From IMG/VR virus record IMGVR_UViG_3300045974_000806, positions 32,001 to 96,000 of that record: 64,000 nt of DNA. One strand, written 5' to 3'. The DNA is from a virus. The notes beneath the pieces are model-generated. The model saw only the letters and a program-made list of their open reading frames with translations, did not search any database and was not told where the DNA came from. A program made the position numbers and the translations under genes. Numbering within the stretch: position 1 is the first letter of the stretch; the number at the start of each line of letters is the position of its first letter. Below are positions 42,111 through 64,000 of this stretch, one piece after another.

Positions 42111-45100
42111 ATGGTTGCAGACCGCATTGCAGGCACCGCAGACCGCATGGGCGCCATGATGCCCCGTGCCCAGTCCCAGCGGTTCGTGGTGACCCAATAC
42201 GGCGCCCCGCCGGAGCCCATGACCCCAGGGCAGGTTCCCGGCGTCACGCCCATCCCTGGCCTGTTCAGCCTGCCGGCCGCGGACCCTACGCCGGCCGCCC
42301 TGCTGGATGACCGCCCGGTGGTGACCGTGGAGGGCGTGACGCGGGACCTGGGCCTGGACCCGGCCCAGGACAACGCGCTCCGGAAGTACGTGCAGACCAT
42401 CATCACCGCGGACAATGAGGCGGTGCTGCGCCAGCAGGTGGTGAGTTACGCCATGACCGCCGGCTTTGACCCGGACACGCGGCGCATCCTGCTGGCCAGG
42501 GTGCTCAAGTTCTACGCGTCCAAGGGCAAGAGCCAGGGCAAGCTGGCCATCCTGAAGCAGGCCGTGCGCGGGCTCCGGAATAAGCCCAGCGGCGCGGAGG
42601 CCACCATGGAGAAGGCCGGCCCGTTCATTGGCCCCAAGGGCGGGAAGTGGGCGGACGCGGCCCACAAGGTTCCGTGGGTGGACCAAGCGGCGGACCTCAA
42701 GCCCCATGGGACCATGCAGCCGCATGAAGTCCTGGCGGAACTGAAGGCCCAGGACCGCGCCGGCAAGCACGGCAAAGAGCAGGACGCCGCCGCCTACCAC
42801 GTTCCGGAAGAGGAGCACGTGCTGGTGGACGTGCCTGTGGACCACACGCTGGACCATGACGTTTACGACAGGGACACGGGAGACTCCGGCGGGCTGGACA
42901 GCAGGACCGGAACGCACCTGGGGGCGCACAAGAAGGCGCGCGTGGAAGACTACGCAGCGCGCACCACCAAGGCCCCGCCCATCCACCTCACCTATGGCGC
43001 CCGCGCCCAGCAGAAGGCGCATGGTCAAGCCGGCGTGATGCAGGGCAACCACCGCCTGGAAGCGGCCAAGCAACGCGGGGACGGCACCATCACCGCCATG
43101 ATGCCCAGGTCGCACTTTGAAGCCTGGAAGGCGCACCGGGAGAAGCGGTTCGTGGAGGGCCATGCCCACTGGCGGGACGTGGAACTGCCCGCCTTTCGTG
43201 AGCGTGATGGGCTGGACAAGTCCCAGTTCGACGAGGATGACACCATGCAGAAGAGCAGCGGCCCGTTCATCGGTCCCAACGGCGGCAAGTGGCGGGATGC
43301 GAAGCACACGCAGCACTGGACCGCGGAGGATGAGCGCGCCCACCGCGGCCCCAACCCGCACGTCCAGCACGTGCCCTGGGACAGTGGGACGCACGACAAG
43401 CCAACCAACAAGCCAATGCCCGCGGGCGCCTCGCATGGCACCTACGCCACCGCCGACAAGCCGGGCTACGCCACCGTTGTGACTGACCGCGCGGCAGCGG
43501 ACGCCTGGGACAAGGAGACGCGCGCCGCGGCGGAGGCCGCAGACCGGTCTGCGGACATCCATCGCATGGTGCCCAGGCCGGTGGGCGTCATGCACTACCC
43601 CACCAAGGGTGAGACGGGCAGCGTCCCCATTGCATCCCAGCACGGCCTCTACACGGTGCATCCGGAGACGGGCGTCATGCCCATTGTGGACCGCGGCTGG
43701 ACGCAATCCCGCCCAGGCCCACGCAAGCGTGCTTGGACCGTCAGCCACGCGCCTTCGGGCCTGCGCGTGAAGCAGACCTTGACCTCCCGGGAAGCCGCGG
43801 AGGCCCTGGCCCGGCACATGGCGAAGCACGCGCCCACCGCCGGCGCGTCATGGGTGCTGGGGCACACGCCGGCCAAGGAAGATCCGGAACTGCAACACAT
43901 TGTGACCACGCGCGCCGCCCACCTCACCCAGGTGAAGGCGGAGAAGGACGCCAAGGAGGCCGTGTCCCGTGAGGCATCTGACCGGGCCTACCGGGAAGCT
44001 GAAGCCCGCGAGAAAGCGGACGAGGAGCGCCTTTTGGTCCCCACGGCCGCGGTGGACTACGCGGTGACGGATGCCAAGGCGCACGCCAAGGACGCCCCGC
44101 CGGCGTTCCGGAGGGAGCACGACAACGGCGTGGAGTTCGCGGCCAAGATCGTGGCGGACAAGCAGTTCCGTGACCCGGCGTTCTCGGACACGCGCAAGCA
44201 GATGGCCACCACGGACAACATGCACGGCAAGGGCATGGTCCTGGCGGCCCACGTGGCCCACCTTCCGGAAGACGAGGCCCATTCCTGGCTGACGCGCATG
44301 GCCCAGGACAAGGCCCTGGGGAAGCCCAAGGGCCGCGGTGGCCATGGCGGTTCCGCGGGTGAGCACTTCCGGAACCTCAAGTCCAACAGCCCGTTCTGGC
44401 ACGGCGTCTACGCGTTTGGGCACCACCTGCAAGTGGGCGTGGACCCGGAGCGCCGGGCCGGCTTCAACAAGGACAACAAGGCCCGGCTGGCGGCGGCCCA
44501 CCCGGGCGTGGTGGAGCAGCGCCTGGAAGCGCCGGCCCCGGAGCGTGACCCCGCGCATGACTACGGCTTCACGCCCAACACCGCGGAGGTGGTGCCCGCC
44601 GGCGACCCCGGCGTGAACTGGGGTCCGGACGCAGCCACCAAGGACGCATGGTCCCGCGAGGCCCAGACAGCCCTGGACAACATCAGCGAGATGCACGCCG
44701 CCCCGCCCACGTTCACCATTCCGGAACACCCTCCGGAACCCGTGGTGGTGGCCATGCCCACCGCCGCGGACGTGGCCCCCACCCGCGCGCCCAGGGGCAA
44801 GGCCGCCAAGGCGCCGGCCAAGCAGATGGACCTGTTTGGGAAGGCCACGGCGTTCCACGTGGACCCGCTGCTGGCACTGGCCACCGTGCTGTCCAAGGCC
44901 GCCACCCCGTTCCTGGGGCCGCACGGCGGGAAGTGGGCCAACGCCGCGCACACCATCCCGTGGAGTGACAAGGTGCATGGGGAGAAGGCCAGCGCCACGC
45001 CCCACGCCGCGTTCCACCCGGACATCAAGGCCCTGGGGGAGATGACCCGCACCGGCCGCGCGGACCCGGACCTGCTGGCCCGGCTGCACAAGCTGGCCCA

Positions 45101-45860: not shown

Positions 45861-45916
45861 CGCGCACGCTGGAACGGAATGCGGTATGAAGGTGGGCAAC
45901 CCCGTTGGAGACTTCC

Positions 45917-48367
45917 ATGACCGTGACCAAAGAAGAGAAGGCCGCCAAGCTGGCCAAGGCCATTGCAGCGGCCAAGGCGCATCAGGAAGAGCAGGCCAAG
46001 GCCCGCACGCTGGCCAAAGCCGCGCCGCCCCCGCATGCGCCCGCGGAAGGGCACACCATGCCGGAGGACCCGGGGAGCAAGAAGATTGAGCAGGACGAAA
46101 CCAAGCTGGCCAACATCCAGGCCGGCGTGGATGAGAAGACCACCACGGAAGCGCGCAAGGAAGGCGACGACGAACAGACGGAGAAGGGCTGCGGCCCGTC
46201 CGTGGTGAAGGCGCCCCTGTCCAAGGGCCTGGGGGACTGGCTGGCCAAGGCCGGCGAGGAAGGGGACGCCGGCCCATCATCCGGAGCGGATGACGCGGCG
46301 GAGGATGACAAGAAGGAGAAGGCCGCGGAGGACAAGGTGGCCCAGGAAACGGGCGACACCGACCCGGCCCAGGACGCCGCCAAGGAGAAGATGCAGGAAC
46401 GCATGGACAAGGCCCGCCACGGCTTCACCGGCACCCCCAAGCTGACCACCGGAACCACGGAGCCGGCGGAGCCTGGGGAGCGCAAGGAGCCGTCCCTTCC
46501 GGAAGCACCGCCGCCCACCAAGGAAGCCCAGGTGCAGCGCGCCACGCCGCCCAGCAAGGTCAACAAGGTCATGCCCAACGCCAAGCCCGTCCGCGGCAAG
46601 CCCGCGGTGGCCAGCAAGGCGCCACCGGAAGAGAACGGCCAGCAGGGCGCCATTGCCGCCCAGGACAAGCCGGCCCCCGTGCCCGCCCCGGTCAAGAAGT
46701 CCCTGGGCCTGGGCGAGTGGCTGTCCAAGGCGGTTCCGGACATGACCATCCTGCCCATCCCCATGGGGGAGGACACGGACGACGGCGGCGGGACGGCGGA
46801 CGGTGACGTGGACGCGGTGACCCTCATGCAGCCGGCGTGGCAGGACAATGAGGCCCAGTGGGACATTGACCGGCTGGCCGTGGAAGCGGTGGACGAGGAG
46901 GAAGGCGTGCAGAAGGGCGTGTTCATTGGACCCAACGGTGGGAAGTGGGACGACGCGGCGCACAAGCGCCACCACACAGAAGGGGGCGCACCTTCCGGAA
47001 CCAGCACCCCCAACCACGTGCTGGGCAAGACCACCTCCGGCAAGGACATCCATCAGGACCACAAGCATCCGGACCACGCTGCGTTCACCGCCCATGACCA
47101 TCTGGACGCGGTGAAGGTGCAAGAGTCCCAACGCTCCCAGGCCATCAACCTCGCGCGCAAAGCCCCGGCCGGCTCCGCCAAGGCCACCGCGCTGTATGGG
47201 GAAGCGAACCACGCCGCGGACGCAGCAACGCATCACGCTGACGCGGCGCGTGCGGCGCACCCTGGCACGTCCGCCGGCGCAAAGGCGCTGCATGACGCGG
47301 CCAACGTGGCCACCAAGACGGCGGACAAGAAGGGGACCGCGGACGCGCACTTCAAGGCCGCCCGCGCGCATCAGGCAGCCGCGGACGCCCACGCGCCCCT
47401 GGACCACGCCGGCCGCAAGTGGCCCGGTGGGTATGAAACCGCGGGCAAGCACGCCGACCACGTGAAGCAGGCCGCGGAGCACCATGACAAGGGCACCACC
47501 ATGCAGCGCGCCGCCTTGGCGGCCAACATCAAGAAGAGCGAGGGAGACATGGACGGACTTTCCGGATGGTTGAAGAAGGCAGGCATTCCTGGCGCCGCGG
47601 ATGAGAGCGGCGGCGTGGCCCAGCATGATTGGAAAGAGGGCACGCCGGACATTGAGCCCGGGGAGCAGGCCAACGGGCATTGGATGGGTGGCGACGGAGA
47701 AAAGAGCCCGCCCCCGTCTGACGGCACGCACATCCGGAACCAGCGCCCAGGTGGCGGCAAGTCCGAAGGCATCCCGGGGACGGAAGGCGCCCCCAGCGTG
47801 GACAGCGAGTCCCTGTCCGCGGATGACGGCCCGGTTGGCAAGATGCCCACGGGTGAGCCCGGCGTTGTGACCGTGAAGGTCCCGGTTCCGGAAGCATCCA
47901 TGGAGAAGGGCAACCTCCGGAACGTGGAGGATGAGGTGGCCGCGTCCCGCAATGCCGCGCTCCGGAAGGCGGCCATTGAGGGCAGCAAGTCCATCCGCGT
48001 GGGCCAGGACGGCGTGCGCTTCACGGCGCCGGCGGTTCCGGAAGCCCCCAAGCCGCTGCTCAAGGGCCTGGGCGCGGCCGTCTATTCGGACGGCGAGGAC
48101 CAGCAGATTGCGGCCATGCTTGAGAAGGGCCAGGGCTACTACGGTGGCGGGTCCGCCCCCAGCATCCCCGCGGTGTCCATGCTCCGGAAGTCCGCCTGTG
48201 GGAACTGCGGCGCTCCGCAGCCGGCATGGCTCACGCGCTGCGGCAACTGCGGCGTTGACGCCGGTGGCGGGAACATGGTCAAGGCCGAAGCACCGCGGGG
48301 ACGCCTCACGCTGCGGCAGGCCAATGTCCTGCGCCTGCCCAACGGCGCCACCATCCCCAAGGTCTGA
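45917..48367 (+). CDS. low-complexity head-region protein with many K(A/S/G) sites and a C-terminal double CxxC
   Basis: GLxxWLxKA x3, one FIGPNGGKW tag, His/Ala-rich segment, CGNC...CGNC. Confidence 0.72.
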   Translation: MTVTKEEKAAKLAKAIAAAKAHQEEQAKARTLAKAAPPPHAPAEGHTMPEDPGSKKIEQDETKLANIQAGVDEKTTTEARKEGDDEQTEKGCGPSVVKAPLSKGLGDWLAKAGEEGDAGPSSGADDAAEDDKKEKAAEDKVAQETGDTDPAQDAAKEKMQERMDKARHGFTGTPKLTTGTTEPAEPGERKEPSLPEAPPPTKEAQVQRATPPSKVNKVMPNAKPVRGKPAVASKAPPEENGQQGAIAAQDKPAPVPAPVKKSLGLGEWLSKAVPDMTILPIPMGEDTDDGGGTADGDVDAVTLMQPAWQDNEAQWDIDRLAVEAVDEEEGVQKGVFIGPNGGKWDDAAHKRHHTEGGAPSGTSTPNHVLGKTTSGKDIHQDHKHPDHAAFTAHDHLDAVKVQESQRSQAINLARKAPAGSAKATALYGEANHAADAATHHADAARAAHPGTSAGAKALHDAANVATKTADKKGTADAHFKAARAHQAAADAHAPLDHAGRKWPGGYETAGKHADHVKQAAEHHDKGTTMQRAALAANIKKSEGDMDGLSGWLKKAGIPGAADESGGVAQHDWKEGTPDIEPGEQANGHWMGGDGEKSPPPSDGTHIRNQRPGGGKSEGIPGTEGAPSVDSESLSADDGPVGKMPTGEPGVVTVKVPVPEASMEKGNLRNVEDEVAASRNAALRKAAIEGSKSIRVGQDGVRFTAPAVPEAPKPLLKGLGAAVYSDGEDQQIAAMLEKGQGYYGGGSAPSIPAVSMLRKSACGNCGAPQPAWLTRCGNCGVDAGGGNMVKAEAPRGRLTLRQANVLRLPNGATIPKV

Positions 48368-48385
48368 CCACAAAGGGAGCGCCAC

Positions 48386-50380
48386 GTGGGTTTCTTCCGT
48401 GACCTCGCAATGGCCACCGCCCGGGTGACCCTGGAAACACTTCAGAAGGCACCACGGGCGGCCCAGGGCGAGGAAGAAGACGAGGAGGCCCCTCCCAAGG
48501 GCGCCGGCAAGAAACCGCCCCCAGGCCCGGCCCAGGAAGCCCAGGGCACGCCTGGGGACGGTCCTGACGGGCAGGATGACCCGGAACCCCCGGAGGGCAA
48601 GGACGCAGAGGACGTGGTGGGGGAGGTGATGCAGCCGGGCTTGCAGACGCCCACGCAGCAGACCCCTGTCACGGCCATGGCCAAGCCCCGTTCCATTCCG
48701 GAACTGGAAGAGGCCCTGAGTGACCCCAAGTCCCTGTTCTGGGACCCGTTCGCCATTGTGGACGCCCTTGGGTACAAGGACCGCCCCTCGCCACTGAGTT
48801 ACCAGACCCTGCAAAGCATGGTGTGGCGCATGCCGGTGGTGCAGGCCATCATCCAGACCCGCATCAAGCAGGTGGCCAACTTTGCCCGCGTGCAGCAGGA
48901 CCGCTACACGGTGGGCTTCCGTGTGGCCCAGCGTGACGCCAAGGCCAGCGCCTCCAAGGGCACGGAGCAACGCTCCCAGCAGTTGGAGCGGTGGCTGCTC
49001 ACCACCGGCGTGACGGACAACCCCGCCGGCCGCGATTCGTTCAGCGCGTTCCTGCAAAAGATCGTGCGGGACACGCTGACCTATGACCAGATGACCTGGG
49101 AGGTGGTGCCGGCGCGTTCCGGAAAGCCCGCGGAGTTCTACGCGGTGGACGCGTCCACCATCCGGATTGCGGACACCACCAAGCTGTTTGTGGACCCGGA
49201 GGACAAGGACGTGGTGCGCTACGTCCAAATCTATGACGGGCTGGTGGTGTCGGAATACAGCAGCCAAGAGATGTGCTTCGCCGTGCGCAACCCGGCCACC
49301 AACATCCGCTTGCAGCAGTACGGACAAAGCGAATTGGAGATGCTGATCACTACCATCACGTCCCTGCTGTGGGCCTTCGATTACAACATGAAGGCGTTCA
49401 GCCAGGGCACGTCCGTCAAGGGGATCATCAACTTCAAGGGCGCGGTTCCGGAGAAGCAACTCCGCGCGTTCCGTCGTCAGTGGTACAGCATGACGGCCGG
49501 CGTGGAGAACGCGTTCAAAACGCCCATTGTGAACTCTGACGACCTGCAATGGGTCAACATGCAGATGTCCAACAGGGACATGGAATACAACGCCTACGTG
49601 GACTTCCAGATCAAGCTGGCGTGCGCCGTCTACGGGATTGATCCCATGGAGATCAACTTCCGCTACGGCGACAGCGGCGGCGCCAAGTCAATGTTTGAGT
49701 CCGGCAACGCCAACAAGCTGGCCGCGTCCAAGGACAAGGGCCTCAAGCCGCTGTTGGAGTTCCTTGAGCACCACATCAATCAGTCCCTCATCTGGCCGCT
49801 GGACGAGGACTTCACGTTTGAGTTCGTGGGCCTGGAAGCGGACAGCAAGAGCGACGAAGCGGACCTCATCACCAAGCAGATCAAGACGTTCAAGAAGGTG
49901 AACGAGATCCGCGCGGAAGAGGGCCTGCCGCCGGACCCCAACGGGGACATCATCCTTGACCCCACGTACCTTCAGCACCTGCAAATGCAGCAGGCCCAGC
50001 AGCAGCAGGACGAGATGGCCGCGCAAGGGCTCATGCCTGACGGCACGCCCATGGGCCAGGACCCGACCGCGGAAGGCGGCGACGGGGAAGACGGGCCTCC
50101 GGGCGACGACGGGGAGGACGGCCCGCCCAAGGGCGGCTCACCGTTCGGCAAGCCCCCCGCGGCCAAGGCCGGCATCACGGACGGCAAGGTGGGCGTGAGC
50201 GCCGCGCCCAAGCCTCCCAAGCCGACGGAGAAGAGCATGGAGGCCCGGCGCCTTGACCCATTGTCTGCGGCCGTGGTCCGGACGCTGACCCGGACTCCGG
50301 AAGGCCGGCGTGAACTGGCGGCGCTCCGGAAGTCCATGGGCGAGGAAGACCGAAAGCTGATCATTGAAGTGGAGGTGTGA
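48386..50380 (+). CDS. portal protein
   Basis: IVRDTLTYDQ, YAVDASTI, YGQSELE, KGII, RDMEY, DKGLKPLL..IN, NEIRAEEGLPP. Confidence 0.9.
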   Translation: MGFFRDLAMATARVTLETLQKAPRAAQGEEEDEEAPPKGAGKKPPPGPAQEAQGTPGDGPDGQDDPEPPEGKDAEDVVGEVMQPGLQTPTQQTPVTAMAKPRSIPELEEALSDPKSLFWDPFAIVDALGYKDRPSPLSYQTLQSMVWRMPVVQAIIQTRIKQVANFARVQQDRYTVGFRVAQRDAKASASKGTEQRSQQLERWLLTTGVTDNPAGRDSFSAFLQKIVRDTLTYDQMTWEVVPARSGKPAEFYAVDASTIRIADTTKLFVDPEDKDVVRYVQIYDGLVVSEYSSQEMCFAVRNPATNIRLQQYGQSELEMLITTITSLLWAFDYNMKAFSQGTSVKGIINFKGAVPEKQLRAFRRQWYSMTAGVENAFKTPIVNSDDLQWVNMQMSNRDMEYNAYVDFQIKLACAVYGIDPMEINFRYGDSGGAKSMFESGNANKLAASKDKGLKPLLEFLEHHINQSLIWPLDEDFTFEFVGLEADSKSDEADLITKQIKTFKKVNEIRAEEGLPPDPNGDIILDPTYLQHLQMQQAQQQQDEMAAQGLMPDGTPMGQDPTAEGGDGEDGPPGDDGEDGPPKGGSPFGKPPAAKAGITDGKVGVSAAPKPPKPTEKSMEARRLDPLSAAVVRTLTRTPEGRRELAALRKSMGEEDRKLIIEVEV

Positions 50381-50382
50381 CC

Positions 50383-50778
50383 ATGCGCATGAAGCACAAG
50401 GTGAACGTCGTGGTCACGGAGGACGTGAACGGCAAGAACAAGCTGTTCGCTCCGGATGACGCGCTGGCGGAGGTGACGCTGGACGGCTTCACGGAGGTGT
50501 CCATGGGCACGGTGGGCCTGGACGCCAATGCGGCGTTCAACGTGCCCCTGGGCGGCATCAGCAACGTCCGCGGGCTCTACCTCAAGTCTTCTGGGGACTT
50601 TGCCCTGGTGCTCAACGGCGGTGCCCCGGTGAACATCACGCGCGGCGTGGCCACCGCCAACGGCAGCAAGGCTGCCAGCGCCAAGGTGTTCCTTGAGGCC
50701 GCGCTCACCAGCATCAGCCTCACCAACGGTGCCCTGGCCAGCAGTCTAAGCTACCTTGTCTGGGGCGACCCCCTGTAA
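50383..50778 (+). CDS. hypothetical beta-rich, probably virion protein
   Basis: SD GGAGGT; follows portal. Confidence 0.6.
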   Translation: MRMKHKVNVVVTEDVNGKNKLFAPDDALAEVTLDGFTEVSMGTVGLDANAAFNVPLGGISNVRGLYLKSSGDFALVLNGGAPVNITRGVATANGSKAASAKVFLEAALTSISLTNGALASSLSYLVWGDPL

Positions 50779-51022
50779 CCCATGAGGTGACATCCATGAA
50801 CGCCACCGCCACGCGCGCGCCGGACGGCTCCGCCCCCAAGTCCGGGGAATGGTGCCTCACGCCGGACAAGCAGCGCATTCAAGTTGTGTGTCCCATGTGC
50901 GTCCCGCCCTGCGTGGCTCACGTGGGCCTGGACCACGTGAGCCACATCAACATGGTGCTCAACGTGTGCGCCGGCTGTCAGCAGATCACCACCATCACCC
51001 TGGAAGGGTATCCGGTTCCGGA

Positions 51023-54000
51023 ATGAAGCTGCGCCTGGAAGCAGACCCCGCTGAACTCCAAACCCGTGGGGACGTGCTGCTCACCAGCCTGTCCCACGCG
51101 GTGGAGCCGCACGCCCCGGCCCTGGCGGAGTCCTTGCGCAAGGCCATTCCGGAACGCCCGCCGGTGGTGTCAAAGCACCGCGCGCTGCGGGAACTCACCC
51201 GGGACGTCCAAGGGCTCTACGCGGACACGGTGGAGCGCATGCTGGCGGAGGTGGGGCAGGCCCTGGACCGCCGCGTGGAAGAGATGACCACCGGCAGCGG
51301 GGACGGCTCCCTCATGAAGGGCGGCCCGTTCATTGGTCCCCAGGGTGGCTTGTGGGCAGACCCCAAGCACACGGTCCACTGGGACCCGGACGTGCATGGA
51401 AGCACGCACCACCCAGTGGCCTGGGCCGTGCCCATCCACGCCAAAATCTCCGGAGAAGAGAACCACGTTGCCATGTACCACGTGACCCACAAGGGCAACG
51501 GCAACGTCATGGTGAGCCGGCACAAGGACGGCCAGTACGGCCAGACCATGCCCGTGGAAAGCCTCAAGCACTTCCGGAACGACCTGTCCGCGGTGGTGGA
51601 CCTTCCGCCTTCCGGAAACCCGGACATTGACGCCGTGACGTCGGGCAAGGCCAAGTTCCTGGGCAAGGGCGACGATGGAATGGCCTTCCACGTTGGGGAC
51701 AAGGTGGTGAAGGTTTCCTCCACGGTCCCCTACCATCCGGACAACCCTGGCCACCGTTCCCCGGAAGGCGCCGCGGACATGCTCCGCGCCCAGGTGGACG
51801 TGGGCAACCATCTGGCGGACCTGGGCGTGCCGTGCATCCAGCGCAGTGAGTTCATCAAGCACGGGGACAAGGGCTTCCAGATCAAGCCGTGGGTGCGCAT
51901 TCCGGAGAAGTTCACCCGGGCGCAGTTGGACAAGATCCAGGGTGCCGTCATTGCCATGCACGAGGCCGGCTACGCCATGCATGACCAGATTCAGCCGGGC
52001 CTGGATGACAAGGGGGAGCCGGTCCTGTTTGACATCGGCAAAGCCGCGCCGCTCGACAAGGAGGGGACGCAGGGCCGCAAGTGGGCCATCGAAGATGACG
52101 TGAGCCACCTTCAGCGTCTCTACGAAAAGAGCGGCGTGGACTTCATCAACCGGAATACGCCGCAGGCCAAACAAGACTTTGACAAGGTGGTGGCCATGTC
52201 CGTCCCGAAGAAGGACGGAAAGCGCGGTGGGGCCGGCCTCTACGCAGACCTGCTGACGATGCAAGGCAAAAAGCTGTTGCGCGCCACCGAGGGGACCGAC
52301 GAGCACATTGGCCACGTGGTGAACTTTGTGGAAGCCCTGCGGGACGTGCGCGACAACCATGGTCCCATCCACCCCAAGCTGCTGGACGAGGCCCGCAAGA
52401 TCATTCCGGAAGACTGGCATGACATGCTGGACGGCCTGGACAAAGAGAAGGCGGCCAAGGCCGGCTACGCGGACGCGGATGACCTGCACAAGTCCGGGCC
52501 GTTCATCGGCCCCAACGGTGGGCTCTGGGCGGACGCAAAGCACACCATCCACTGGGACCCCGCGAAGCACGGCCCAGGCACGCCCGTCCGCTACGGCATG
52601 AGCCTCCGGCCGCCGGGCCTGGGCGCGCTGCCCTCCGGCGTGAAGTGGGACCTTGTGGCCCGCGGGAAGCACCCCGCCAGTTCATTCCCTGGCCGGCCTG
52701 ACCTGCCGGTGTCTGAGCACCACCTGCACGGGGAAGTGGAACTCCCAGGCCACCTTGACCCGGAGCGCGCCGCGGCCATGGACATGGTGCGCATCAGCCC
52801 CGCGCCCGTGGAGGCCCCGCCGGCGCGCGCGGCCAAGCCGGAGCAGTTGGGCCTGTTCAGCATGCCCGCCAAGCCCCCGGAGCCGGAGGACAAGCCGTCC
52901 AGCCGGCGCCTGCTGGCCATTGTGGACAATGACCCGGCCCTCACCCAGGAACAGAAGCTGGCGCCCACCGCGGAGGTGATGAAGGCCATCCTGGCCAAGC
53001 CGGCCAGCGACCCGGGCCAGTGGAAGCTGCCCGCCGGCGCGCGCTTTGACCCGTGGGAGCCCAAGGCCGTTCCGGAAGACGCGGAGTGGGAGCACCCGGA
53101 CTTTGGTTCCGGAACCGGCGCCGCACCGTGGCAGCAAGGCGACGACTGGAAGCCGGACTTCCACAAGTATGACGTCCTGCTGGTGAACAGCAGCGCCGGC
53201 AAGGACTCCCAGGCCATGCTGTCCCACGTGGTGGCCCAGGCAGACGCCGCGGGCTTCCCGCGTGAGAAGATCGTGGTGGTGCATTGCGACCTGGGCCGCG
53301 TGGAGTGGGAAGGCACCAAGGAACTGGCCATTCAGCAGGCCCAGCACTACGGCCTGCGCGTGGAGGTGGTGCAGCGCACCCAGAACGACCTGCTTGAGCA
53401 GATTGAGGAGCGCCACGGGGACCTGACCCAGCGGCAAGAGGACGTGGGCAAGCTGGTCGCGGCCGGCATCCGGACCTGGGCGGACCTTGCGGCCATGGAC
53501 CCGGCCACGGTGCAGAAGCACCTGGGCGAGGGGAAGGGCGCCTCCAAGTGGGAGGCCCAGCACCGGGCGGAAGAACTGGTGGACAAGGCCCAGAAGAAGC
53601 TGGAAGCGGCCCAGGAATGGGAGCCGCTGCACAACGCCCACCAAGCGGCCCTGGCCCAGCACGCGGAGGACATGACGGCCTATGAGGCCCGCGTGGCCGC
53701 CAACCCCAAGGACAAGAAGAACAAGCCCAAGGCCCCCAAGAAGCCCAAGGGCAAGCCGGTGTTCGCCGCGGACCCGGTGGACTTTGGGAAGGCCATTGCG
53801 TGGCCCAGCAGTGATGCCCGGTTCTGCACGTCCGACCACAAGCGCGCGGAGGTGAAGAAACTCATGACGCGCCTTGCCGACGAGCACCGGGAGAAGAACG
53901 GCCCCAAGTCCAAGCCGCGCATCCTGAACGCCCTGGGCCTGCGCGCCCAGGAAAGCGACTCCCGGGAGGCCATGCCGTCCTTTGAGCGCGAGGAAGAGAC

Positions 54001-56785: not shown

Positions 56786-56796
56786 TCCGGAACCTT

Positions 56797-56837
56797 TGCT
56801 TTTTGTATTGCCTTCCGGAACCGGAGGAACTAAGTGT
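56797..56837 (+). promoter_or_regulatory. class-1 promoter, copy D
   Basis: TGCTTTTTGTA-TTGCCT-17 nt starting TCCGGAA-TAAGTG. Confidence 0.7.
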
Positions 56838-56890
56838 TGGGCTCCACCAAGGACGCGCCTCAAAACAGGGCGCCCACCAAGGAGAACCCA

Positions 56891-58888
56891 ATGATCATCA
56901 CCGCGAAGTGGAACAGCGCCTGCCCCGTTTGCACCAAGCTCATCTCCGCCGGCTCCGCCTGCGACTGGCAGAAGGGCAAGAAGGCCACCCACGTGGCGTG
57001 CGCCTCCGCCGAGGCCAAGGAAACCCTGGAAGCCTCACGCGCCAGCGCCCCGGCCGCCAACGCCACCATCCCGGTCCCTGAAGCCCCCGCCGGCCTGAAC
57101 TACCTCCCCTTCCAGGCCGCGGGCATCCAGTTCGCGCTGGCCCGGTTCGCCGCCGGCAAGAACGGCGTGTTGGTGGCTGACGAGATGGGCCTGGGCAAGA
57201 CCATCCAGGCCCTGGGCGTCTGCAACGGGCTGGCGCCGGCCGCGGAGAAGCCCCTCAATGTGCTGGTGGTGTGCCCCGCGTCCCTGCGCCTGAACTGGGC
57301 ACGTGAGGCGTCCAAGTGGCTGGTGGGCCGCTGGGAGGTGACCACGTTCCTGAAGACGGACAAGGTGCTCACCGCGCGCTCAGACGTCGCCATCCCGTAC
57401 GCGCAGCACTCCCTGACCGTGGTGAATTACGACATCCTGAGCAAGGTGCCCTGTGTCCACGGGACGGAGTGGGACGTCCTGATTGTGGACGAAAGCCACT
57501 ACGCGAAGAACGGGAAGGCCAAGCGGACCCAGTTCCTGGCGGCCATCAAGTCCACCCGCCGCGTGTTCCTGACGGGCACGCCCATCTGCAACCGCCCCTC
57601 TGAACTGGTGTCCCTGCTCACCCAGATTGAGCCCAGCGAGTGGGGCGCCTTTGGGGAACAGAAGGCGTTCTTCAAGTTCGCCTACCGGTTCTGCAACCCC
57701 ACCAAGGTGTGGACCGGCTTCAAGTACGTCACCGACTTCACCGGCGCATCCAACCTTGATGAACTGCAAATCAAGCTGCGCACCGGCGTCATGGTCCGCC
57801 GCATGAAGGCGGACGTGCTGAAGGAACTGCCCCCCAAGACCCGGCAGGTGGTGGTGCTTCCGGAGAACGGCGCCAGCGCCGCGGTGAAGGCGGAGCGCGC
57901 CGCGTTTGGTGAGGACATGGCGGAGCGCCTGACCGCGGTGGCGGATGACGCGGACGCCTACGCGTCCCTAGTGGCGGAACTGACCTCCCCCAAGGCCCCG
58001 TCCTTTGAGGCCATCTCCCTGGCCCGGCAGGCCCTGGCCATTGAGAAGGTGCCCTACGTGGTGGACCACGTGCGGCAGGCCCTGGAAGACAACGACGGCC
58101 ACAAGGTGGTGGTGATGGCGCATCACAAGGCGGTGGTGGACGCCCTGATGGCCGGCCTGGGCGAGTTCGGCGCGGTCAAGATCGACGGGTCCATGGGCGC
58201 GGAGGACCGCGAGGCCAGCGTGACCAAGTTCCAGACCGACGCGGCCACCCGCGTGTTCGTGGGCAGCATCATGGCGGCCGGCGTGGGCATCACGCTCACC
58301 GCGGCCCACCACGTGGTGTTCGCGGAGTTGGACTGGGTTCCGGGCAACGTGTCCCAGGCAGAGGACCGCTGCCACCGCATTGGCCAGCATGACAACGTGC
58401 TGGTGCAGCACCTTGTGTTTGACGGCTCCCTGGACGCGCTGCTGGTGCAGACCATCCTGGGCAAGCAGGCCGTCATCTCCGCCGGCCTGGACACCCAGCA
58501 GGCCGTGGTGGATGCCCCCGCGGCCATGGTGGCCCGCAGCGCCGCCAAGCCGGCCCCCAAGACGGCGGAGGAAGTGGCCGCGGGCAGCGAGTTCACCGCG
58601 GAAGTCCGCGAGGCCACCATGCGCGGCCTCAAGTCCCTGTCCGCGGTGTGTGACGGCGCCCACGACGAGGACGGGATGGGCTTCAACGGCCGTGACAGCG
58701 GCTTTGGCAAGTCCCTGGCCGCCCGCGCGTTCCTGACGGACAGCATGACCCGCGCGGCCATCAAGATGCTGCGCACCTACCGCAACACCCAGTTGTCCGC
58801 GGACGTCACCTCCGTCCTGGCCCCGTTCTGGCCCACCAAGGCCAAGGCGCCCAAGGCCGCCAAGGCGGACGCGCCCGCCGCGGAGTGA
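56891..58888 (+). CDS. SNF2-family helicase/translocase with N-terminal Zn finger
   Basis: ADEMGLGKT, CPASL, VDESH, LTGTP..N, RRMKADVL, QAEDRCHRIGQ; CPVC...HVAC; SD AAGGAG. Confidence 0.92.
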   Translation: MIITAKWNSACPVCTKLISAGSACDWQKGKKATHVACASAEAKETLEASRASAPAANATIPVPEAPAGLNYLPFQAAGIQFALARFAAGKNGVLVADEMGLGKTIQALGVCNGLAPAAEKPLNVLVVCPASLRLNWAREASKWLVGRWEVTTFLKTDKVLTARSDVAIPYAQHSLTVVNYDILSKVPCVHGTEWDVLIVDESHYAKNGKAKRTQFLAAIKSTRRVFLTGTPICNRPSELVSLLTQIEPSEWGAFGEQKAFFKFAYRFCNPTKVWTGFKYVTDFTGASNLDELQIKLRTGVMVRRMKADVLKELPPKTRQVVVLPENGASAAVKAERAAFGEDMAERLTAVADDADAYASLVAELTSPKAPSFEAISLARQALAIEKVPYVVDHVRQALEDNDGHKVVVMAHHKAVVDALMAGLGEFGAVKIDGSMGAEDREASVTKFQTDAATRVFVGSIMAAGVGITLTAAHHVVFAELDWVPGNVSQAEDRCHRIGQHDNVLVQHLVFDGSLDALLVQTILGKQAVISAGLDTQQAVVDAPAAMVARSAAKPAPKTAEEVAAGSEFTAEVREATMRGLKSLSAVCDGAHDEDGMGFNGRDSGFGKSLAARAFLTDSMTRAAIKMLRTYRNTQLSADVTSVLAPFWPTKAKAPKAAKADAPAAE

Positions 58889-58963
58889 AGCGGCCCCTGG
58901 CCCGGTGGCGCCTTCCGGAATGGATGGCCGCCACCGGGTCCCTGCGGTAGTCTCGCGCGCACC

Positions 58964-61900
58964 ATGCCCTTGCTCACCGCGCGCCTCATCCAAGAGATCA
59001 AAGAGATCATCCGGAAGCACCACACGGCGTTCGTGGCCAACGCGTTTGGCAAGGACGTGCTCCCCCCGGAAGCGGTGGAGAAGCTGCGCGCGGCCGGCCT
59101 CATCAGCCAGACACAGGGCAGCAGCCTGGACGACGCCTACCTCTACGGGCAGGTGATGGCCCAGGTGGAGAAGCCGGAGGTGGCCGAGTGGTCCGCCGCC
59201 CAGGTCCGGTCCTACGCGGCCCAGAACCCCGTCCCCCTCACCCAGGTGGAGCGTGAAGCGGTGAAGACGGCCCGGCTCACCGGCGCGGAGTATTGCCAGG
59301 GCCTGGGCAACGTCATTGAGAAGCAGACCGGCCAGTTGCTGATCGAGGCGGACCACGCGCTGCGGGAAGACCTGCAGGGGAAGATTGCGGACGCCACTGC
59401 GGTGAACATTGCCGCGCGCGGCACGGTGAAGGCGCTCAAGACGGACCTGGGCTGGGCCACGCAGGACTGGGCCAGGAACTTGGACCGCATTGCCATCACG
59501 GAGAAGCAGAACGCGATGCAGCAGGGTGTGGCGGATGGCATCCGGAAGCGCGTGGGGGAGGAAGCCCGCGTGTCCATCCGGTGCATGCCGGACGCCTGTG
59601 GCGCGTGCCGGGCGTTCAGCATTGGCCCGGACGGCGCCCCGCGCATCTACCGCCTGAGCCAGTTGGGGCCTCCGGGCTCCAACGTCCACCGCAAGCAGAA
59701 CGCGTGGGTGGCGTGCGTGGGCGCGGTGCATCCGCACTGCCATCCCGCAGGGACCGTGGTTCAGACGCGGCGGGGGCGCATCCCGATTGAGACGGTGGTG
59801 CCGGGGGACATGGTGCTGACGCACCGGGGCCGGTGGATGCCTGTGAGCCACACGTGGGCGTCCCGGTATTCCGGAATCATGTTGCGCGTGAGGACGGAAA
59901 GCGCGGTGGTTGACGTGACTCCGGAGCATCCGTTGTTCCGCTCAAACGGAACCACCGCTTCCGCGCAAAACCTCCAACAGGGTGACAACCTTTTGGACCT
60001 CCGCTTGGACGGAGAACCCGCGCCGTCGGTCCAAGGTGATGCGGACCACGGACCATCCGCGCCGCTTGAGCGCGCGCATCTTGCGCGCATCCTGTTTGGC
60101 CTTTCTCCCGCTGGCGTGCCAGTTGCCGCCGTCAACTTCCACGGCGAGCTTTTCCTGTGGGAAGGCAATGTCCACCAGAAACGTGCCCACAATGAAGCCT
60201 GGGAGCCCAGCCATTCCGACGGCGCAAAGCGCCTCATGGATGAGGCGTTCACCGGGACTTTTGAGTTGACCGCTTTGGGCTTGAAGCACCTTGAGGATGT
60301 GCCCACGGGAGTTCCGTTTGCCACGTCGGGCTGCATGCGCAGCGTTGGCGCGGGCACTACGTTCCTCCGGGCTGGACCGGGCGTTGCGGAGGCGTTGGGC
60401 TTCCCCCATCCCGCGGACGACGTGTCCAGCACGCTCCAAGCGGAGCACCACGGTCCCACGGGCCACCCCCAGCCGCCGGGCAATCTCCTGTACCGGGAGC
60501 AGTTGGTTGAGGTGCAAGTCTACAAGGACCGCTTCATCAATTTCGCGCCGGTACACCATGAGCCCTCCGTGGCTTTCAGTGCCCCGACGGTGCGGCAAGC
60601 TGCGTCCATTGTCAATGTCAGTTCAAACCAGTTTGATGGGTTGGTGTTCAACCTGACCGTTCCGGAAGATCACAGTTACACGGCCAACGGGCTGGCCTCG
60701 CACAACTGCCAGTGCCAGTTGGTCCGCTTGCCCGTGGGCTGGGGATACAACGCGGAAGGGGAGATGGAGCCCGGCGGCCGGTTCGGCGTGGAGGTTCCGG
60801 AAGACGAGGAAGAGGCGGAGAAGGCGTTCCGGATGGAAGTGGAGCACCGGGAGGCCATGCAGAAGGGCGGCACCCTGGACTTCCAGGGCATGCCCATCCG
60901 GATCGAACAGGACGCGGGGGAGGTGCGCCACTGGCGGGACCGTCACGGCGAGTCCGGCAGCACCACCATGCAACACGCCTACGGGGAGATTGTGGGCACC
61001 AAGGGCGCCGACGGTGACCCGGTGGACGTGTTCCTGGGCATGAACCCCAACGCGTCCCACGTCTACGTTGTCCACCAGCGGAAGAAGCGTGCGGACGGGA
61101 CGTTTGGTGGCTTTGACGAGGACAAGGCGTTCCTGGGCTTCTCTTCTCCGGAAGAGGCCAAGGCCGCCTACCTGTTGCACTACGACAACCCGGAGTTCTT
61201 TGGCGGGATGTCCGCGGTGGGCCTGGAAGACTTCCGCGCGCGCGTAGGCGCCCCCGGCCCCCTGGTGGGGGAACCGGTCCACACTCCGGAACTGACCTTC
61301 ACCGTGGCGCTTCCGGAATCCGCGGCGGACATGGCCAAGGCCGCCGTCCGCCCGCCGGCCGTTCCGGACATGACGTTCACCCTGGGCAAGGCGTTTGGCC
61401 AAGCCGCGGCCGGTCACAAGTACATCCGGCGCACGTACACCAAGGGCCATTGGGTCTATGAGTACGCGGAGCAGCACGGCGGGCACGTGAGTAGCCACGC
61501 CACGGACCCGGACAAGGTGATGCTCAAAGTGGAGCCCCACCACGCCAACGCCCTGGCGGCGCTGGCGGAGATGCACGGCATCCATCCGGAACTGGTGCAT
61601 GGGAGCACGCACGTCATGCTGCCCCTCACCCACGCCCAGGCTGATTCCATCCACCACGGTGAGACGGGCACGCCCATCCCGGCCGCCATGCTGCCCACGC
61701 CGGCCCTGGCCACCGTGCTGCCCTTCCCCACGCCCGCTCAGGTGGCCCCCGTGGCTCCGGCACCCCTGGCCCCGACCGTGGCGCCTGCGCCGGCTCAGGT
61801 GGCTCCGCGGGCACGCCCGGCCCCGGCCCAGCAGATGGGCCTCTTTGACACCATGCCCGCGGCCCAGGCCGTCACGCAGTCCCCGGTGACCCATCCGGCC

Positions 61901-64000
61901 CCCACGCCCCTGGCGGTGGCCGCCATTCCGGAGAAGAAGTGGGGCGTGGTGGGTTCCACCGCGTTCCGGAATTGGTTCGGGGACTGGACGGTGGGCCAAG
62001 GGTCCAAGGTGGTGAACGCGGACAACACGCCGGCGGAGCAGCACGGAGCCAAGCCGGCAACCATGTTCCACGGCACCGCGGTGGGCGGGTTCACGGAGTT
62101 CCGGAAGGACAAGGACAAGGGCACCAACATCTTTGGGCACGGCTTCTACTTCACGGCGGACAAGGGCATTGCCAAGTCCTACACGGAGAAGGATGCCAAT
62201 GAGGCCAAGGCCGCCGCCACGGGTTTCTTGGACAAGGAAGGCGAGCCCATCACGCACCTGACCAAGAAGCAGGCCGCGGAACTGGCGGAGAAGGCCGCGG
62301 GCAACGCCAACCCCAACTGGGACTACAACATCCTGCACGCGGTGAAGGCCGCCGCGGAGCCGGACGGCCGCGTCAATGTGGCCACCCTGTTGAAGGAGTT
62401 CTGGAACCCCACCGGAGTGGAGACGGACGGCGGCTACAAGCAGCCCAAGCGTGAAGTGATGCCCATGGGCGGCGTGCGCTTGGTGGGCGGCATCCAGGGC
62501 CTCTTTGGGAAGAACCGCGCCGGTGAATACCACGTCAAGCCGGTCATTCCGGAGTCCCAGGTCTTTGAGGTGTACCTCAACATCCGGAACCCGGTGGACA
62601 TGGACAAGGCCATGACCCGCGCGGACTTTGCGGAGTACGCGGCGTTCACGCACCGGCGTGCGTTGGAGCGTCTGAACAAGGAGTTGGAGCAGGACAAGGC
62701 CCGCGTGGAGACGAAGCGCGGGGAGATGGCGTCCGCCAAGGTGAAGCTGGCCGCGCTGGCCCCCACGCCCCCGCAGCCTACGGAGATGCGGGTTCCGGAA
62801 GGCAAGCGGAAGGCCGTCCCCATGCCGGTGGAGGAGTGGACCGGTGAGATGCGCCGGGCGATTGATGACCCCACGCATGGACAGCACGCAATGGCCCAGG
62901 CGTTTGCTTCCTGGGAGCACGCAAAGAACGAACGGGAGTTCCTGTCCCAGGCCGCGGCCGGGGAGGGCTATGACGGGTTCAACAACGCGGTGGCGCATTC
63001 CGTCCGCACCCAGGCCCGCATTGATGCCGTCCGGCGTGAGGTTCCCGGGGAGTTCCTGCACGGCGTGCAGATGGATGACGTGGCCCCGCGTGAGCACCGC
63101 CTCTCAGACCAAAGTGAGAGCGCCGCCAGCTATGATGACTTTGTGGCGGTGAAGCGCAGCATCAAGGGGGACCGCACCAAGCCGGAGATGGTCACCTACG
63201 GCGGCACGTCCCGCGCCCGGGCCGGCATCCTCTACGTGGGGGAGCAGAAGCCGGGCGCCATCACCTGGGGTGAGATGCATTGGTTGATGTCCAACGGGCA
63301 TGAGGCGTCCAGCCCGCGCGCGGACTTCGACGAGTGGGCGCGCGCCACGGGAAAGGATGGCGTTCACCACACCGGCGGATGGAACATTGGCACCCACGCG
63401 CATGACGTGTGGATTGCGTTTGAACCCAACCAGATCAAGTCCTCCACGGCCAACACCACGTTTGACCCGGCCTCCAATGACATGGAGAAGGCCGGCCCTT
63501 ACGTTGGCCCGCACGGCGGGCTTTGGGCGGACCCCAAGCACACCATCCATTGGTCCGCGGTCCCGCACTGGGCGCAGAAGATGGCCGCCAGCCACGCCGC
63601 GGAGATCAAGCCACACCCCACGGACCCGCACAGCCTGGAAGTGGCCGTGCCGGTGAAGCACGCTCCGGAACTGGGCTACCAGCAGGGCCAGCACGCGGTG
63701 CCCCACAACGTGAAGCTGTCCGCGGACCTCAAGCAGGCCACGTTGCAGGTCCCCGCCCTCCCGGTGGCGCCGGACGTTCAGGCGCTTGGACGTCCAGACG
63801 TCCAGACGCCCGCCCCGGCTCCCACGCCCCCGCCTGCCCCTGTGGCACCGCCCCCGCCGCCCGCGCCCCTGGCCGGCGTGGCGCCCACGGGCAAGCCCAA
63901 GCGCAAGGGCATCACCGTGGCCCAGTTGGATATGTTTGCGCCCGCTCCGGCTGCGACGGCTCCCGTCGCACCGGTGGTGCAGGCGCCGGCAACCCCTGCT
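58964..64000 (+). CDS. MuF-like head protein with intein, then InPase-like and ADP-ribosyltransferase-like domains (runs off window)
   Basis: Translated by hand: no stop from ATG 58964 to the window end. RIAITE, CGAC, HPH|CQC; YGEIVGTKGADGDPVDVF...FDEDKAFLGF; FRNWFGDW, FHGT, GFYFT, YLNIRNP, FEPNQIKS. Confidence 0.88.
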   Translation, partial: MPLLTARLIQEIKEIIRKHHTAFVANAFGKDVLPPEAVEKLRAAGLISQTQGSSLDDAYLYGQVMAQVEKPEVAEWSAAQVRSYAAQNPVPLTQVEREAVKTARLTGAEYCQGLGNVIEKQTGQLLIEADHALREDLQGKIADATAVNIAARGTVKALKTDLGWATQDWARNLDRIAITEKQNAMQQGVADGIRKRVGEEARVSIRCMPDACGACRAFSIGPDGAPRIYRLSQLGPPGSNVHRKQNAWVACVGAVHPHCHPAGTVVQTRRGRIPIETVVPGDMVLTHRGRWMPVSHTWASRYSGIMLRVRTESAVVDVTPEHPLFRSNGTTASAQNLQQGDNLLDLRLDGEPAPSVQGDADHGPSAPLERAHLARILFGLSPAGVPVAAVNFHGELFLWEGNVHQKRAHNEAWEPSHSDGAKRLMDEAFTGTFELTALGLKHLEDVPTGVPFATSGCMRSVGAGTTFLRAGPGVAEALGFPHPADDVSSTLQAEHHGPTGHPQPPGNLLYREQLVEVQVYKDRFINFAPVHHEPSVAFSAPTVRQAASIVNVSSNQFDGLVFNLTVPEDHSYTANGLASHNCQCQLVRLPVGWGYNAEGEMEPGGRFGVEVPEDEEEAEKAFRMEVEHREAMQKGGTLDFQGMPIRIEQDAGEVRHWRDRHGESGSTTMQHAYGEIVGTKGADGDPVDVFLGMNPNASHVYVVHQRKKRADGTFGGFDEDKAFLGFSSPEEAKAAYLLHYDNPEFFGGMSAVGLEDFRARVGAPGPLVGEPVHTPELTFTVALPESAADMAKAAVRPPAVPDMTFTLGKAFGQAAAGHKYIRRTYTKGHWVYEYAEQHGGHVSSHATDPDKVMLKVEPHHANALAALAEMHGIHPELVHGSTHVMLPLTHAQADSIHHGETGTPIPAAMLPTPALATVLPFPTPAQVAPVAPAPLAPTVAPAPAQVAPRARPAPAQQMGLFDTMPAAQAVTQSPVTHPAPTPLAVAAIPEKKWGVVGSTAFRNWFGDWTVGQGSKVVNADNTPAEQHGAKPATMFHGTAVGGFTEFRKDKDKGTNIFGHGFYFTADKGIAKSYTEKDANEAKAAATGFLDKEGEPITHLTKKQAAELAEKAAGNANPNWDYNILHAVKAAAEPDGRVNVATLLKEFWNPTGVETDGGYKQPKREVMPMGGVRLVGGIQGLFGKNRAGEYHVKPVIPESQVFEVYLNIRNPVDMDKAMTRADFAEYAAFTHRRALERLNKELEQDKARVETKRGEMASAKVKLAALAPTPPQPTEMRVPEGKRKAVPMPVEEWTGEMRRAIDDPTHGQHAMAQAFASWEHAKNEREFLSQAAAGEGYDGFNNAVAHSVRTQARIDAVRREVPGEFLHGVQMDDVAPREHRLSDQSESAASYDDFVAVKRSIKGDRTKPEMVTYGGTSRARAGILYVGEQKPGAITWGEMHWLMSNGHEASSPRADFDEWARATGKDGVHHTGGWNIGTHAHDVWIAFEPNQIKSSTANTTFDPASNDMEKAGPYVGPHGGLWADPKHTIHWSAVPHWAQKMAASHAAEIKPHPTDPHSLEVAVPVKHAPELGYQQGQHAVPHNVKLSADLKQATLQVPALPVAPDVQALGRPDVQTPAPAPTPPPAPVAPPPPPAPLAGVAPTGKPKRKGITVAQLDMFAPAPAATAPVAPVVQAPATPA
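59942..60559 (-). CDS. HTH + Vsr/DUF559 (EDxHD-like) endonuclease encoded antisense inside the intein
   Basis: EIARRLGVARGTV (HTH); KSPGE, VDIAFPQEKLAVEVDGGNWH, QDARK..LKRRGWSVVRI; GGAGG upstream of ATG 60559. Confidence 0.85.
   Translation of the reverse strand: MVYRREIDEAVLVDLHLNQLLPVQEIARRLGVARGTVVLRLERAGHVVRGMGEAQRLRNARSSPEERSARANAAHAARRGKRNSRGHILKVLQAQSGQLKSPGERLIHEALCAVGMAGLPGFIVGTFLVDIAFPQEKLAVEVDGGNWHASGRKAKQDARKMRALKRRGWSVVRITLDRRRGFSVQAEVQKVVTLLEVLRGSGGSV
60587..60615 (-). promoter_or_regulatory. candidate promoter for the antisense endonuclease
   Basis: Minus strand TTGACA (60615-60610), 17 nt, CACCGT (60592-60587), about 28 nt before the ATG. Confidence 0.55.

Follow-up and report, generated by a model that had tools for sequence, protein, structure and literature searches.

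Which proteins a phage packages and injects, and how it selects them, is understood in few model phages only, and the signals used there are idiosyncratic. The question is raised by a stretch of 64,000 nucleotides (nt) of viral DNA, hereafter the window, which corresponds to bases 32001-96000 of the single 110,271-bp contig of IMG/VR record IMGVR_UViG_3300045974_000806. In this window a short peptide of 25 residues, here called the tag, occurs eight times in four large open reading frames (ORFs A, B, E and G), which all lie on the same strand between the large terminase gene and the head protease and capsid genes. A first-pass annotation, made from the sequence without database searches, had proposed that the tag, together with a Lys-type prohead-protease site in front of it, loads, cuts and injects many effectors. 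Having followed this up, we consider it on the whole probable, if by no means assured, that the products of A, B, E and G are polyvalent-type cargo proteins (see below), made as polyproteins, which are packaged, cut by the head protease into tagged modules and docked by means of the header that the tag provides.

The tag is a conserved header peptide

A regular-expression scan, followed by a hidden Markov model (HMM) of the copies run against the six-frame translation of the whole contig, recovered exactly eight copies, the same eight that the first-pass annotation had listed. The HMM E-values were about 1e-20 to 1e-23 per copy, and the next-best match had an E-value of 0.25. All copies are on the plus strand (window positions are given, and a slash marks the predicted cut). 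ORF A contains three of them: A1 (42606..42677, MEK/A-GPFIGPKGGKW...), A2 (43245..43319, MQK/SS-GPF..., with a second site, LDK/S, 11 amino acids (aa) upstream) and A3 (44889..44963, LSK/AA-TPFLGPHGGKW..., a slightly degenerate copy). The single copy in ORF B (46907..46975, VQK/G-VFIGPNGGKW...) is the most divergent one and has His in place of the last Trp. ORF E contains E1 (51311..51382, LMK/G-GPFIGPQGGLW...), E2 (52484..52555, LHK/S-GPF...) and E3 (54692..54763, LSK/S-GPF..., with a second site, MDK/A, 10 aa upstream), and ORF G one copy (63482..63553, MEK/A-GPYVGPHGGLW...). As had been claimed, an [LMV]-x-K-[SAG] element stands directly ahead of every one of the eight, and the spacing from its Lys to the GPF core varies by no more than one residue in either direction.

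The consensus over 282 copies from the lineage reads L-x-K-[AGS]-(G)-GP[YF]IGP[RK]GGKWAD[PA]xHTIPW and is followed by a stretch rich in Lys, Glu, Pro and Gly. A Lys site is found 0-5 residues upstream of the tag in 105 of 118 unique copies and in 224 of the 282 copies in representatives. Thirty-four of 144 tagged proteins open with the tag after a leader of 3-20 residues, and two open directly with it ((M)SA-GPF and SS-GPF). As only one copy in 282 is located near a C-terminus, the peptide can be called a header and in no case a tail. AlphaFold2 models of the 118 unique copies depict a compact unit (predicted local distance difference test (pLDDT) 84-91 over residues 11-40), in which short beta-bridges connect the FI positions to [KL]W and a helix of one turn follows the last Trp. 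Foldseek found no match to the tag model among solved structures, no Pfam or PHROG model covers the tag, and no description of the tag or of its motif strings was found in these two databases or in the searchable literature. With regard to conservation, the median best-match identity of the tag core across the lineage is 80%, far above that of the head machinery of the same lineage (portal 48%, capsid protein 46%, protease 49%, terminase 45%).

Two flavours of the tag can be distinguished. The copies in A and B have GGKW...PW (HW and HH in A2 and B, respectively) and those in E and G have GGLW...HTIHW; in relatives the Leu flavour is mostly located downstream of the portal gene (19 versus 4), and the Lys flavour is found on both sides of it (39 versus 30). 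It may also be mentioned that the sites ahead of A2 and E3 are doublets (LDK/S...MQK/S at 43212-43256 and MDK/A...LSK/S at 54659-54703), spaced 10-11 residues apart. Similar K-S...K-A doublets precede tags in several relatives, and cutting at both sites would free a short acidic spacer peptide.

The tag is restricted to the head modules of one phage lineage

When the tag profile was compared with 1.84 billion cluster representatives, 760 proteins matched at E ≤1e-3 and 252 at ≤1e-10; the best 150 of the 760 are mostly large proteins with 2-5 copies each. In IMG/VR the tag is carried by 134 stretches in 72 loci with a G+C content of 32-71%, and 69 of these loci have a clear homolog of the portal, terminase, protease or capsid protein of the present genome within 10 kb. 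A scan of one genome per species for 185,579 prokaryotic species, with a pattern that covers only about half of the tag variants, gave three matches, all on metagenome-assembled contigs, two of which carry the same head genes. The consensus tag and a copy from the window gave either nothing or chance matches (E ≥2) in a tblastn search of 50,697 GenBank phage records, and the tag was not found in 72,556 PLSDB plasmids. The gene context is that of the sampled IMG/VR and GTDB loci rather than of all 760 database proteins. As far as sequence data can tell, the tag is thus a lineage-restricted element that is not found outside the head modules of one phage lineage. A profile search of this kind had been proposed in the first-pass annotation, and its outcome agrees with what was expected there: the tag is confined to head modules, where it precedes variable, swappable modules, and the contrary outcome, a tag equally present in non-virion proteins, was not seen.

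The Lys element as a probable head-protease cut signal

By our count, five independent lines (capsid alignment, capsid conservation, site enrichment, portal tails and protease homology) indicate that the hydrophobic-x-Lys-[Ser/Ala/Gly] element is very probably a head-protease cut signal. The gene of the major capsid protein (L001:12255-13691; PHROG 752, 2e-85) lies outside the window. In this protein ELEAINK/ALTVG aligns on QEDALK/SFTTG of an A511-type phage; PDB chain 9row_B (439 aa, capsid protein of Staphylococcus K/812 type) opens exactly at that Ser, and the 5lii chain (463 aa) extends upstream through ...VVK. Each of the 14 distinct related capsid proteins keeps the boundary motif L-[NR]-K/A. 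For A511 Cps, Loessner and Scherer reportedly placed the boundary at Lys23/Ser24 by N-terminal sequencing in 1995. HK97 gp5 is cut after Lys103.

The enrichment of the site was judged against shuffled sequences. For [LMIV]-x-K-[SAG] the counts are 15 versus 2.0 expected in the protease-scaffold protein, 17 versus 3.0 in ORF B and 13 versus 6.5 in ORF E, the background rate in other proteins being 0.36 per 100 residues. The scaffolds of 15 distinct relatives have 5-13 sites where 0.6-1.9 are expected, and in each case none of 300 shuffles reached the observed number. In an unbiased test of all 400 dipeptides in the pooled scaffolds, KS ranked first (117 observed versus 29 expected, z 17.6) and KA had a z of 6.8; moreover, position P3 was Leu in 121 of the 232 K[SAG] sites, compared with 9.5% Leu overall. 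It should be underlined that these pooled counts are not independent, because the scaffolds are homologous; the per-protein tests stand. An excess was also seen in the cultured SPO1-like Bacillus phage Goe16 (L004:4414-5912), in which the scaffold-like protein has 11 sites versus 1.4 expected and the protease 9 versus 1.5, suggesting that the Lys-Ser rule is open to direct testing in SPO1. Over the scaffold proteins of the present phage, of the 15 relatives and of an SPO1-like phage, the excess is 5-10-fold. A search for fewer sites than expected among proteins that are not substrates gave no sign of a general depletion, the SNF2 helicase encoded by ORF F (0 observed, 2.9 expected) excepted.

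In the portal, candidate cut sites are located in both tails: LQK/A after residue 21 (48440..48451, plus strand) and LRK/S 15 aa before the end (50324..50335, plus strand). These two are not enriched when this portal is considered alone (2 observed versus 1.8 expected), and the evidence lies in their positions, which are kept among about 40 related portals: most of these have hydrophobic-x-K-[AS] 20-35 residues from the N-terminus and L-R-K-S 10-25 residues from the C-terminus. The first-pass annotation had named both sites together with a third, TEKS, which does not fit the motif.

The presumed enzyme is encoded as part of a 516-aa head protease-scaffold protein (L001:10637-12187, corresponding to genome positions 100637-102187, outside the window; PHROG 1028, 2e-35). 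Its protease domain is 29% identical (E 3e-22) to the A511-type 'peptidase_U35' protease of LMSP-25, and the two align at both the His motif (...NH...) and the Ser motif (G[YF]S[VI]EG). The Pfam S78 model did not match this protease, nor did any PDB sequence. The Lys-type prohead-protease site that had been suggested by analogy with SPO1- and A511-like phages is accordingly borne out at the sequence level by the capsid K/S alignment, the scaffold enrichment and the protease homology. In this connection, a 99-aa protein encoded far from the head block (20618-20917) was observed to have 3 sites versus 0.5 expected (0 of 200 shuffles).

The predicted cargo proteins and their modules

The 12 segments delimited by the tags in A, B, E and G are mutually unrelated by BLASTP, apart from one marginal pair (A3 versus E3, E 0.002), which agrees with the earlier claim that each copy precedes an unrelated segment. 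ORF A (42111..45860, plus strand, 1249 aa) has three tags, and its predicted fragments are 168, 213, 548 and 320 aa long. ORF B (45905..48367, plus strand) encodes a low-complexity protein of 820 aa with one tag and 16 further hydrophobic-x-K-[SAG] sites. Neither protein has a domain recognisable by Pfam or PHROG, and since ORF A holds nothing recognisable, the 'ParB-like' label given to it in the first-pass annotation is unconfirmed. As judged by its sites, ORF B is probably cut into many small pieces and resembles a scaffold-like protein or one of the internal core, destined to be reduced to small peptides. A private repeat, GLGxWLxKA, is present in it three times (at residues ~113, 273 and 556), in each case with a candidate site at its end; none of the 72 related loci in which this repeat was searched for has it.

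The longest frame of ORF E (50849..56785, plus strand) encodes 1978 aa. The protein-database version starts 58 codons later, at 51023, and has 1920 aa; position 51023 is probably the true start, as residues 1-3 of homologs align opposite residues 56-59 of the longer frame. The three tags separate an N-terminal domain, a kinase-fold module, a PAPS-reductase module, possibly with DarA_C, and a ddrB-ParB module. Among the labels given earlier to these modules, PAPS-reductase (Pfam PAPS_reduct, E 2e-13), and DdrB-ParB (ddrB-ParB, E 4e-19) are confirmed, and kinase-like is supported by a model of the module after E1 (mean pLDDT 82) whose top Foldseek matches were all protein kinases. DarA_C is marginal (E 0.095).

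ORF G (58964..64000 and on to L001:10029, plus strand) encodes 3021 aa and has a single tag, which would divide it into halves of 1509 and 1512 aa. The first 1509 residues contain an intein, an InPase domain and an ART-PolyVal domain with no tag between them, and LPD1 follows the tag. The earlier claim that the tags partition the cargo therefore holds in general, although not for every domain. The intein (Hint_2 and Intein_splicing; residues ~259-581, window 59738-60706) splits the conserved N-terminal domain of G, and over residues 1-258 the identity with the N-termini of related cargo proteins is 55-58%. These residues were checked for an N-terminal Phage_Mu_F domain, as in MuF-fused head proteins (SPP1 gp7 / Mu F type), and no Pfam or PHROG match was obtained. 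The Pfam and PHROG searches revealed no peptidase family in A, B, E or G.

The same types of modules recur in relatives. InPase was found by Pfam in 15 of 40 tagged proteins, and the other domains include ddrB-ParB, Topoisom_I (type IB topoisomerase), GNAT, SNF2, LPD1, ART-PolyVal, S-AdoMet_lyase and nucleotidyltransferase. Homologs of the kinase-fold module are found in different polyproteins at residues 50, 282, 808, 1005 and 1986. The preceding tag ends no more than 15 residues from the start of the module in 19 of 32 cases, and another ten have an additional domain of about 130 residues between tag and module. As judged by this comparison, the modules behave as cassettes. ORF F (56834..58888, plus strand), located between E and G, encodes the untagged SNF2 helicase; many relatives have a homologous helicase as a module within a tagged polyprotein, such as a 1998-aa ORF in L008.

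A proposed mechanism and its alternatives

Packaging, cleavage, a docking role of the tag and delivery of the modules into the host are what we infer from these observations. The four proteins would be expressed late as cargo polyproteins and loaded into the prohead of a phage whose head module is of the SPO1/Herelleviridae type. The tag region would contain a signal in two parts. The first, hydrophobic-x-Lys/[Ser/Ala/Gly], would be recognised by the phage's own prohead serine protease of the S78/U35 type, and the same enzyme would trim the capsid protein after K30, degrade the scaffold and probably clip both portal tails; cleavage of the four precursors would yield about 12 pieces, with many more arising from ORF B. 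The second part, the next 20-22 residues (GP[FY]IGPxGG[KL]WADxxHxxxW), would form a small folded, hairpin-like knob. Since the conserved cut site lies upstream of the tag and there is no conserved site after it, the knob would be kept on the new N-terminus of each downstream module. There it may serve as a portable handle that docks the cargo to a conserved surface of the prohead interior (scaffold, inner face of the capsid, protease or portal), and any module acquiring the header would then be packaged. Docking in the prohead is the most likely role of the tag itself. The polyprotein interpretation of the first-pass annotation is supported to the extent that proteins of the polyvalent type are located in the head-gene block and that the Lys-small-residue site in them matches a head-protease signal.

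Several observations weigh against this proposal. Docking alone leaves the presence of one tag per module unexplained, because a single tag would carry a whole polyprotein into the head. About 8% of the tags have no nearby Lys site, and the total count of the four-residue site is at background in A, G and the portal. The support that solved structures give to cleavage at K/S consists of where a deposited chain begins. Finally, no cultured phage among the GenBank phage records carries the tag. In a bolder form of the proposal, the 22-residue knob would serve throughout a large uncultivated phage lineage as the universal signal, portable between proteins, for loading heads and possibly for leaving them too, such that any protein composed of a leader, Leu-x-Lys and the header would be packaged, freed by the head protease and passed on to the host; this we put forward tentatively and regard as rather less probable than not.

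The presence of one tag per module would be explained more naturally if the tag were an exosite, an enlarged recognition element by which the adjacent Lys site is offered to the head protease, with no docking role and with no function other than making the linkers between modules cleavable. The pairing of tag and Lys site is one to one with few exceptions, one tag per module agrees better with one tag per cut than with targeting, and the very high conservation of the tag would fit binding to the protease (which itself is 49% conserved). However, the sites in the capsid protein, scaffold and portal as well as 16 sites in ORF B are untagged, so that the four-residue signal appears to be sufficient, and many tag-first proteins have only a 3-20-residue leader or no Lys at all (MSA-GPF, SS-GPF), leaving little or nothing to cut off. 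We therefore regard an exosite as unlikely. The number of tags is also better explained than by docking if the precursors are cut as proposed and each fragment is handled singly afterwards, the header acting later, either as a leader for exit through portal and tail or as a DNA- or metal-binding handle by which the fragments stay on the packaged DNA and are ejected together with it. The position of the header at the free N-terminus of each fragment would suit such a role, as would its RGGKW, its invariant Asp, His and Trp and the Lys/Pro/Gly-rich linker that follows. The tag nevertheless has no similarity to a known DNA-binding or ejection motif, and the Foldseek search with its model was empty; to a later role we give similarly little credence.

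Two further explanations dispense with the head protease as the enzyme acting at the tags. If no processing occurs, the peptide may be a conserved structural linker, or a recombination joint at which co-infecting phages swap modules, with the Lys motif just a part of it. In favour of this, modules move between polyproteins together with their tag, and the tags within ORF E share 74-87% DNA identity with exact runs of up to 27 nt. Across the range of G+C contents, however, the tag is conserved at the protein and not at the DNA level, and scaffolds are, independently, enriched in the same Lys motif, which also stands at the capsid maturation boundary; this explanation is quite improbable. A joint at the DNA level was rejected as the main explanation, as most tag pairs within the genome are only 55-68% identical with exact runs of at most 20 nt, and the longest exact run of any pair is 27 nt. 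The tag might also be imagined to cut its own upstream bond by means of its Asp and His, which along with Trp and Gly are invariant in this small folded unit beside the presumed scissile bond. An identical P3-P1' pattern is, however, found without a tag in the capsid protein, scaffold and portal, beside a conserved serine protease gene, and we know of no autoproteolytic motif of this size; self-cleavage is hardly credible.

Comparison with known packaged proteins

Polyvalent proteins have been described as giant multi-domain proteins encoded beside the portal and terminase genes, for which packaging and delivery along with the DNA have been predicted (Iyer, Burroughs, Anand, de Souza and Aravind 2017, PMC5512222). 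Like them, the tagged proteins have ddrB-ParB, InPase, ART-PolyVal, LPD1, SNF2, kinase and GNAT domains. By domain content E and G class as polyvalent, whereas A and B do so only by the shared tag and by position. The same source proposes processing by built-in peptidase domains (zincin-like metallopeptidases, MPTases), which are frequent but not universal, and word searches of this text retrieved neither a repeated header peptide nor a Lys-type head-protease site. A, B, E and G differ from the polyvalent proteins with zincin-like MPTases in having no detected peptidase domain, and from those of conjugative elements in that the tag was not found in plasmids.

The second point of comparison is the capsid targeting sequence of T4 internal proteins and the N-terminal 30-residue signal of P1 DarB (Mullaney and Black; Gonzales et al. 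2022, PMC9024508). These are likewise short N-terminal peptides beside a prohead-protease site on proteins that are loaded into the head and delivered to the host, which for the tagged proteins is a prediction from sequence. The tag has no sequence similarity to the T4 and P1 signals. It resembles them in its position N-terminal to the cargo, as seen from the tag-first proteins, the single copy near a C-terminus and the directly headed kinase homologs. With regard to the fate of the signal the two differ: the T4 signal is located upstream of its Leu-x-Glu cut and is discarded, whereas the tag is located downstream of the predicted Leu-x-Lys cut, has no conserved site after it and would be kept. 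The T4-like targeting tag suggested in the first-pass annotation is thus supported as to position but not as to removal. Furthermore, the Dar proteins of P1 share no consensus signal (PMC9024508), whereas here one nearly invariant peptide is reused, also inside polyproteins.

As to the head itself, the portal, protease and capsid protein are homologous to those of Herelleviridae (SPO1, A511, K/812), in which the N-terminus of the mature capsid protein follows a Lys, and the scaffold-like protein of the SPO1-like phage Goe16 is rich in the same Lys motif. In the two Herelleviridae head loci examined (Goe16 and LMSP-25), the interval from portal to protease is free of giant cargo genes. In phiKZ and SPN3US many head-internal proteins are reported to be cut by the prohead protease at a short motif, the fragments being retained and ejected (PMC10052503, PMC7411985). 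The protease of these phages belongs to a different lineage and their motif is of Glu type. To our knowledge, no conserved repeated header peptide has been described for them. In encapsulins, a short conserved cargo-loading peptide, usually C-terminal, brings varied enzymes inside a shell of the HK97 fold. Such a peptide is a functional analogue of the proposed docking, by analogy only, as its sequence is unrelated and no protease step is involved. The tag system is best seen as a variation on the known polyvalent proteins and the T4/P1 capsid-targeting signals, new in reusing a header that would be retained.

What distinguishes the present case is that one nearly invariant peptide, more conserved than capsid protein, portal or protease, marks hundreds of variable enzyme modules over the whole range of G+C contents. 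If the tag is a loading signal, it would provide a sequence rule by which the injected proteome, and candidate anti-defence effectors within it, can be predicted straight from metagenomes; it would also explain how polyvalent proteins gain and lose modules and offer a compact tag for loading foreign proteins into capsids. As a universal loading signal it would in addition explain the free shuffling of anti-defence modules and would be a plug-in delivery tag, the phage counterpart of encapsulin cargo-loading peptides. The cut rule, Leu-x-Lys followed by Ser, Ala or Gly, can be tested for head proteases of the SPO1 type and would cover scaffold, portal and cargo alike.

Genomic setting

The contig has a G+C content of 67%, and all its genes are on one strand. 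The gene order is large terminase, ORF A, ORF B, portal, a 133-aa gene, ORF E, the SNF2 helicase gene F and ORF G, followed beyond the window end by the fused head protease-scaffold gene and then the major capsid protein gene. The large terminase gene (40173..42107, plus strand; Pfam Terminase_6C, 4.8e-8) forms the upstream border of the block. The portal (48386..50380, plus strand; Pfam Phage_portal, 1.4e-28) is of the SPO1 type, with long N- and C-terminal tails, and shares 44% identity with portals of Bacillus phages. For the capsid protein, the identity with SPO1-like capsid proteins is 36%, and it matches the solved SPO1 Gp6.1 chain at 6e-77, and by these similarities portal and capsid protein are of SPO1/Herelleviridae type. 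The 133-aa protein (50377..50778, plus strand) comes after the portal in most tag-bearing relatives and has homologs in at least 25 loci; Pfam and PHROG searches gave no match for it.

Two minor observations concern relatives. Protease and scaffold, which constitute one 516-aa ORF here, are encoded in relatives by separate overlapping ORFs in different frames (L008 17694-18557 and 18448-19458). The single ORF could be a fusion in the present genome, or the relatives could make a frameshift-joined product. Moreover, a tag-bearing ORF and a related portal are located at the very start (L079:1-13176) of a 469-kb metagenome-assembled contig assigned to Acidimicrobiia, which could mean a prophage or an assembly chimera, or could hint at the host.

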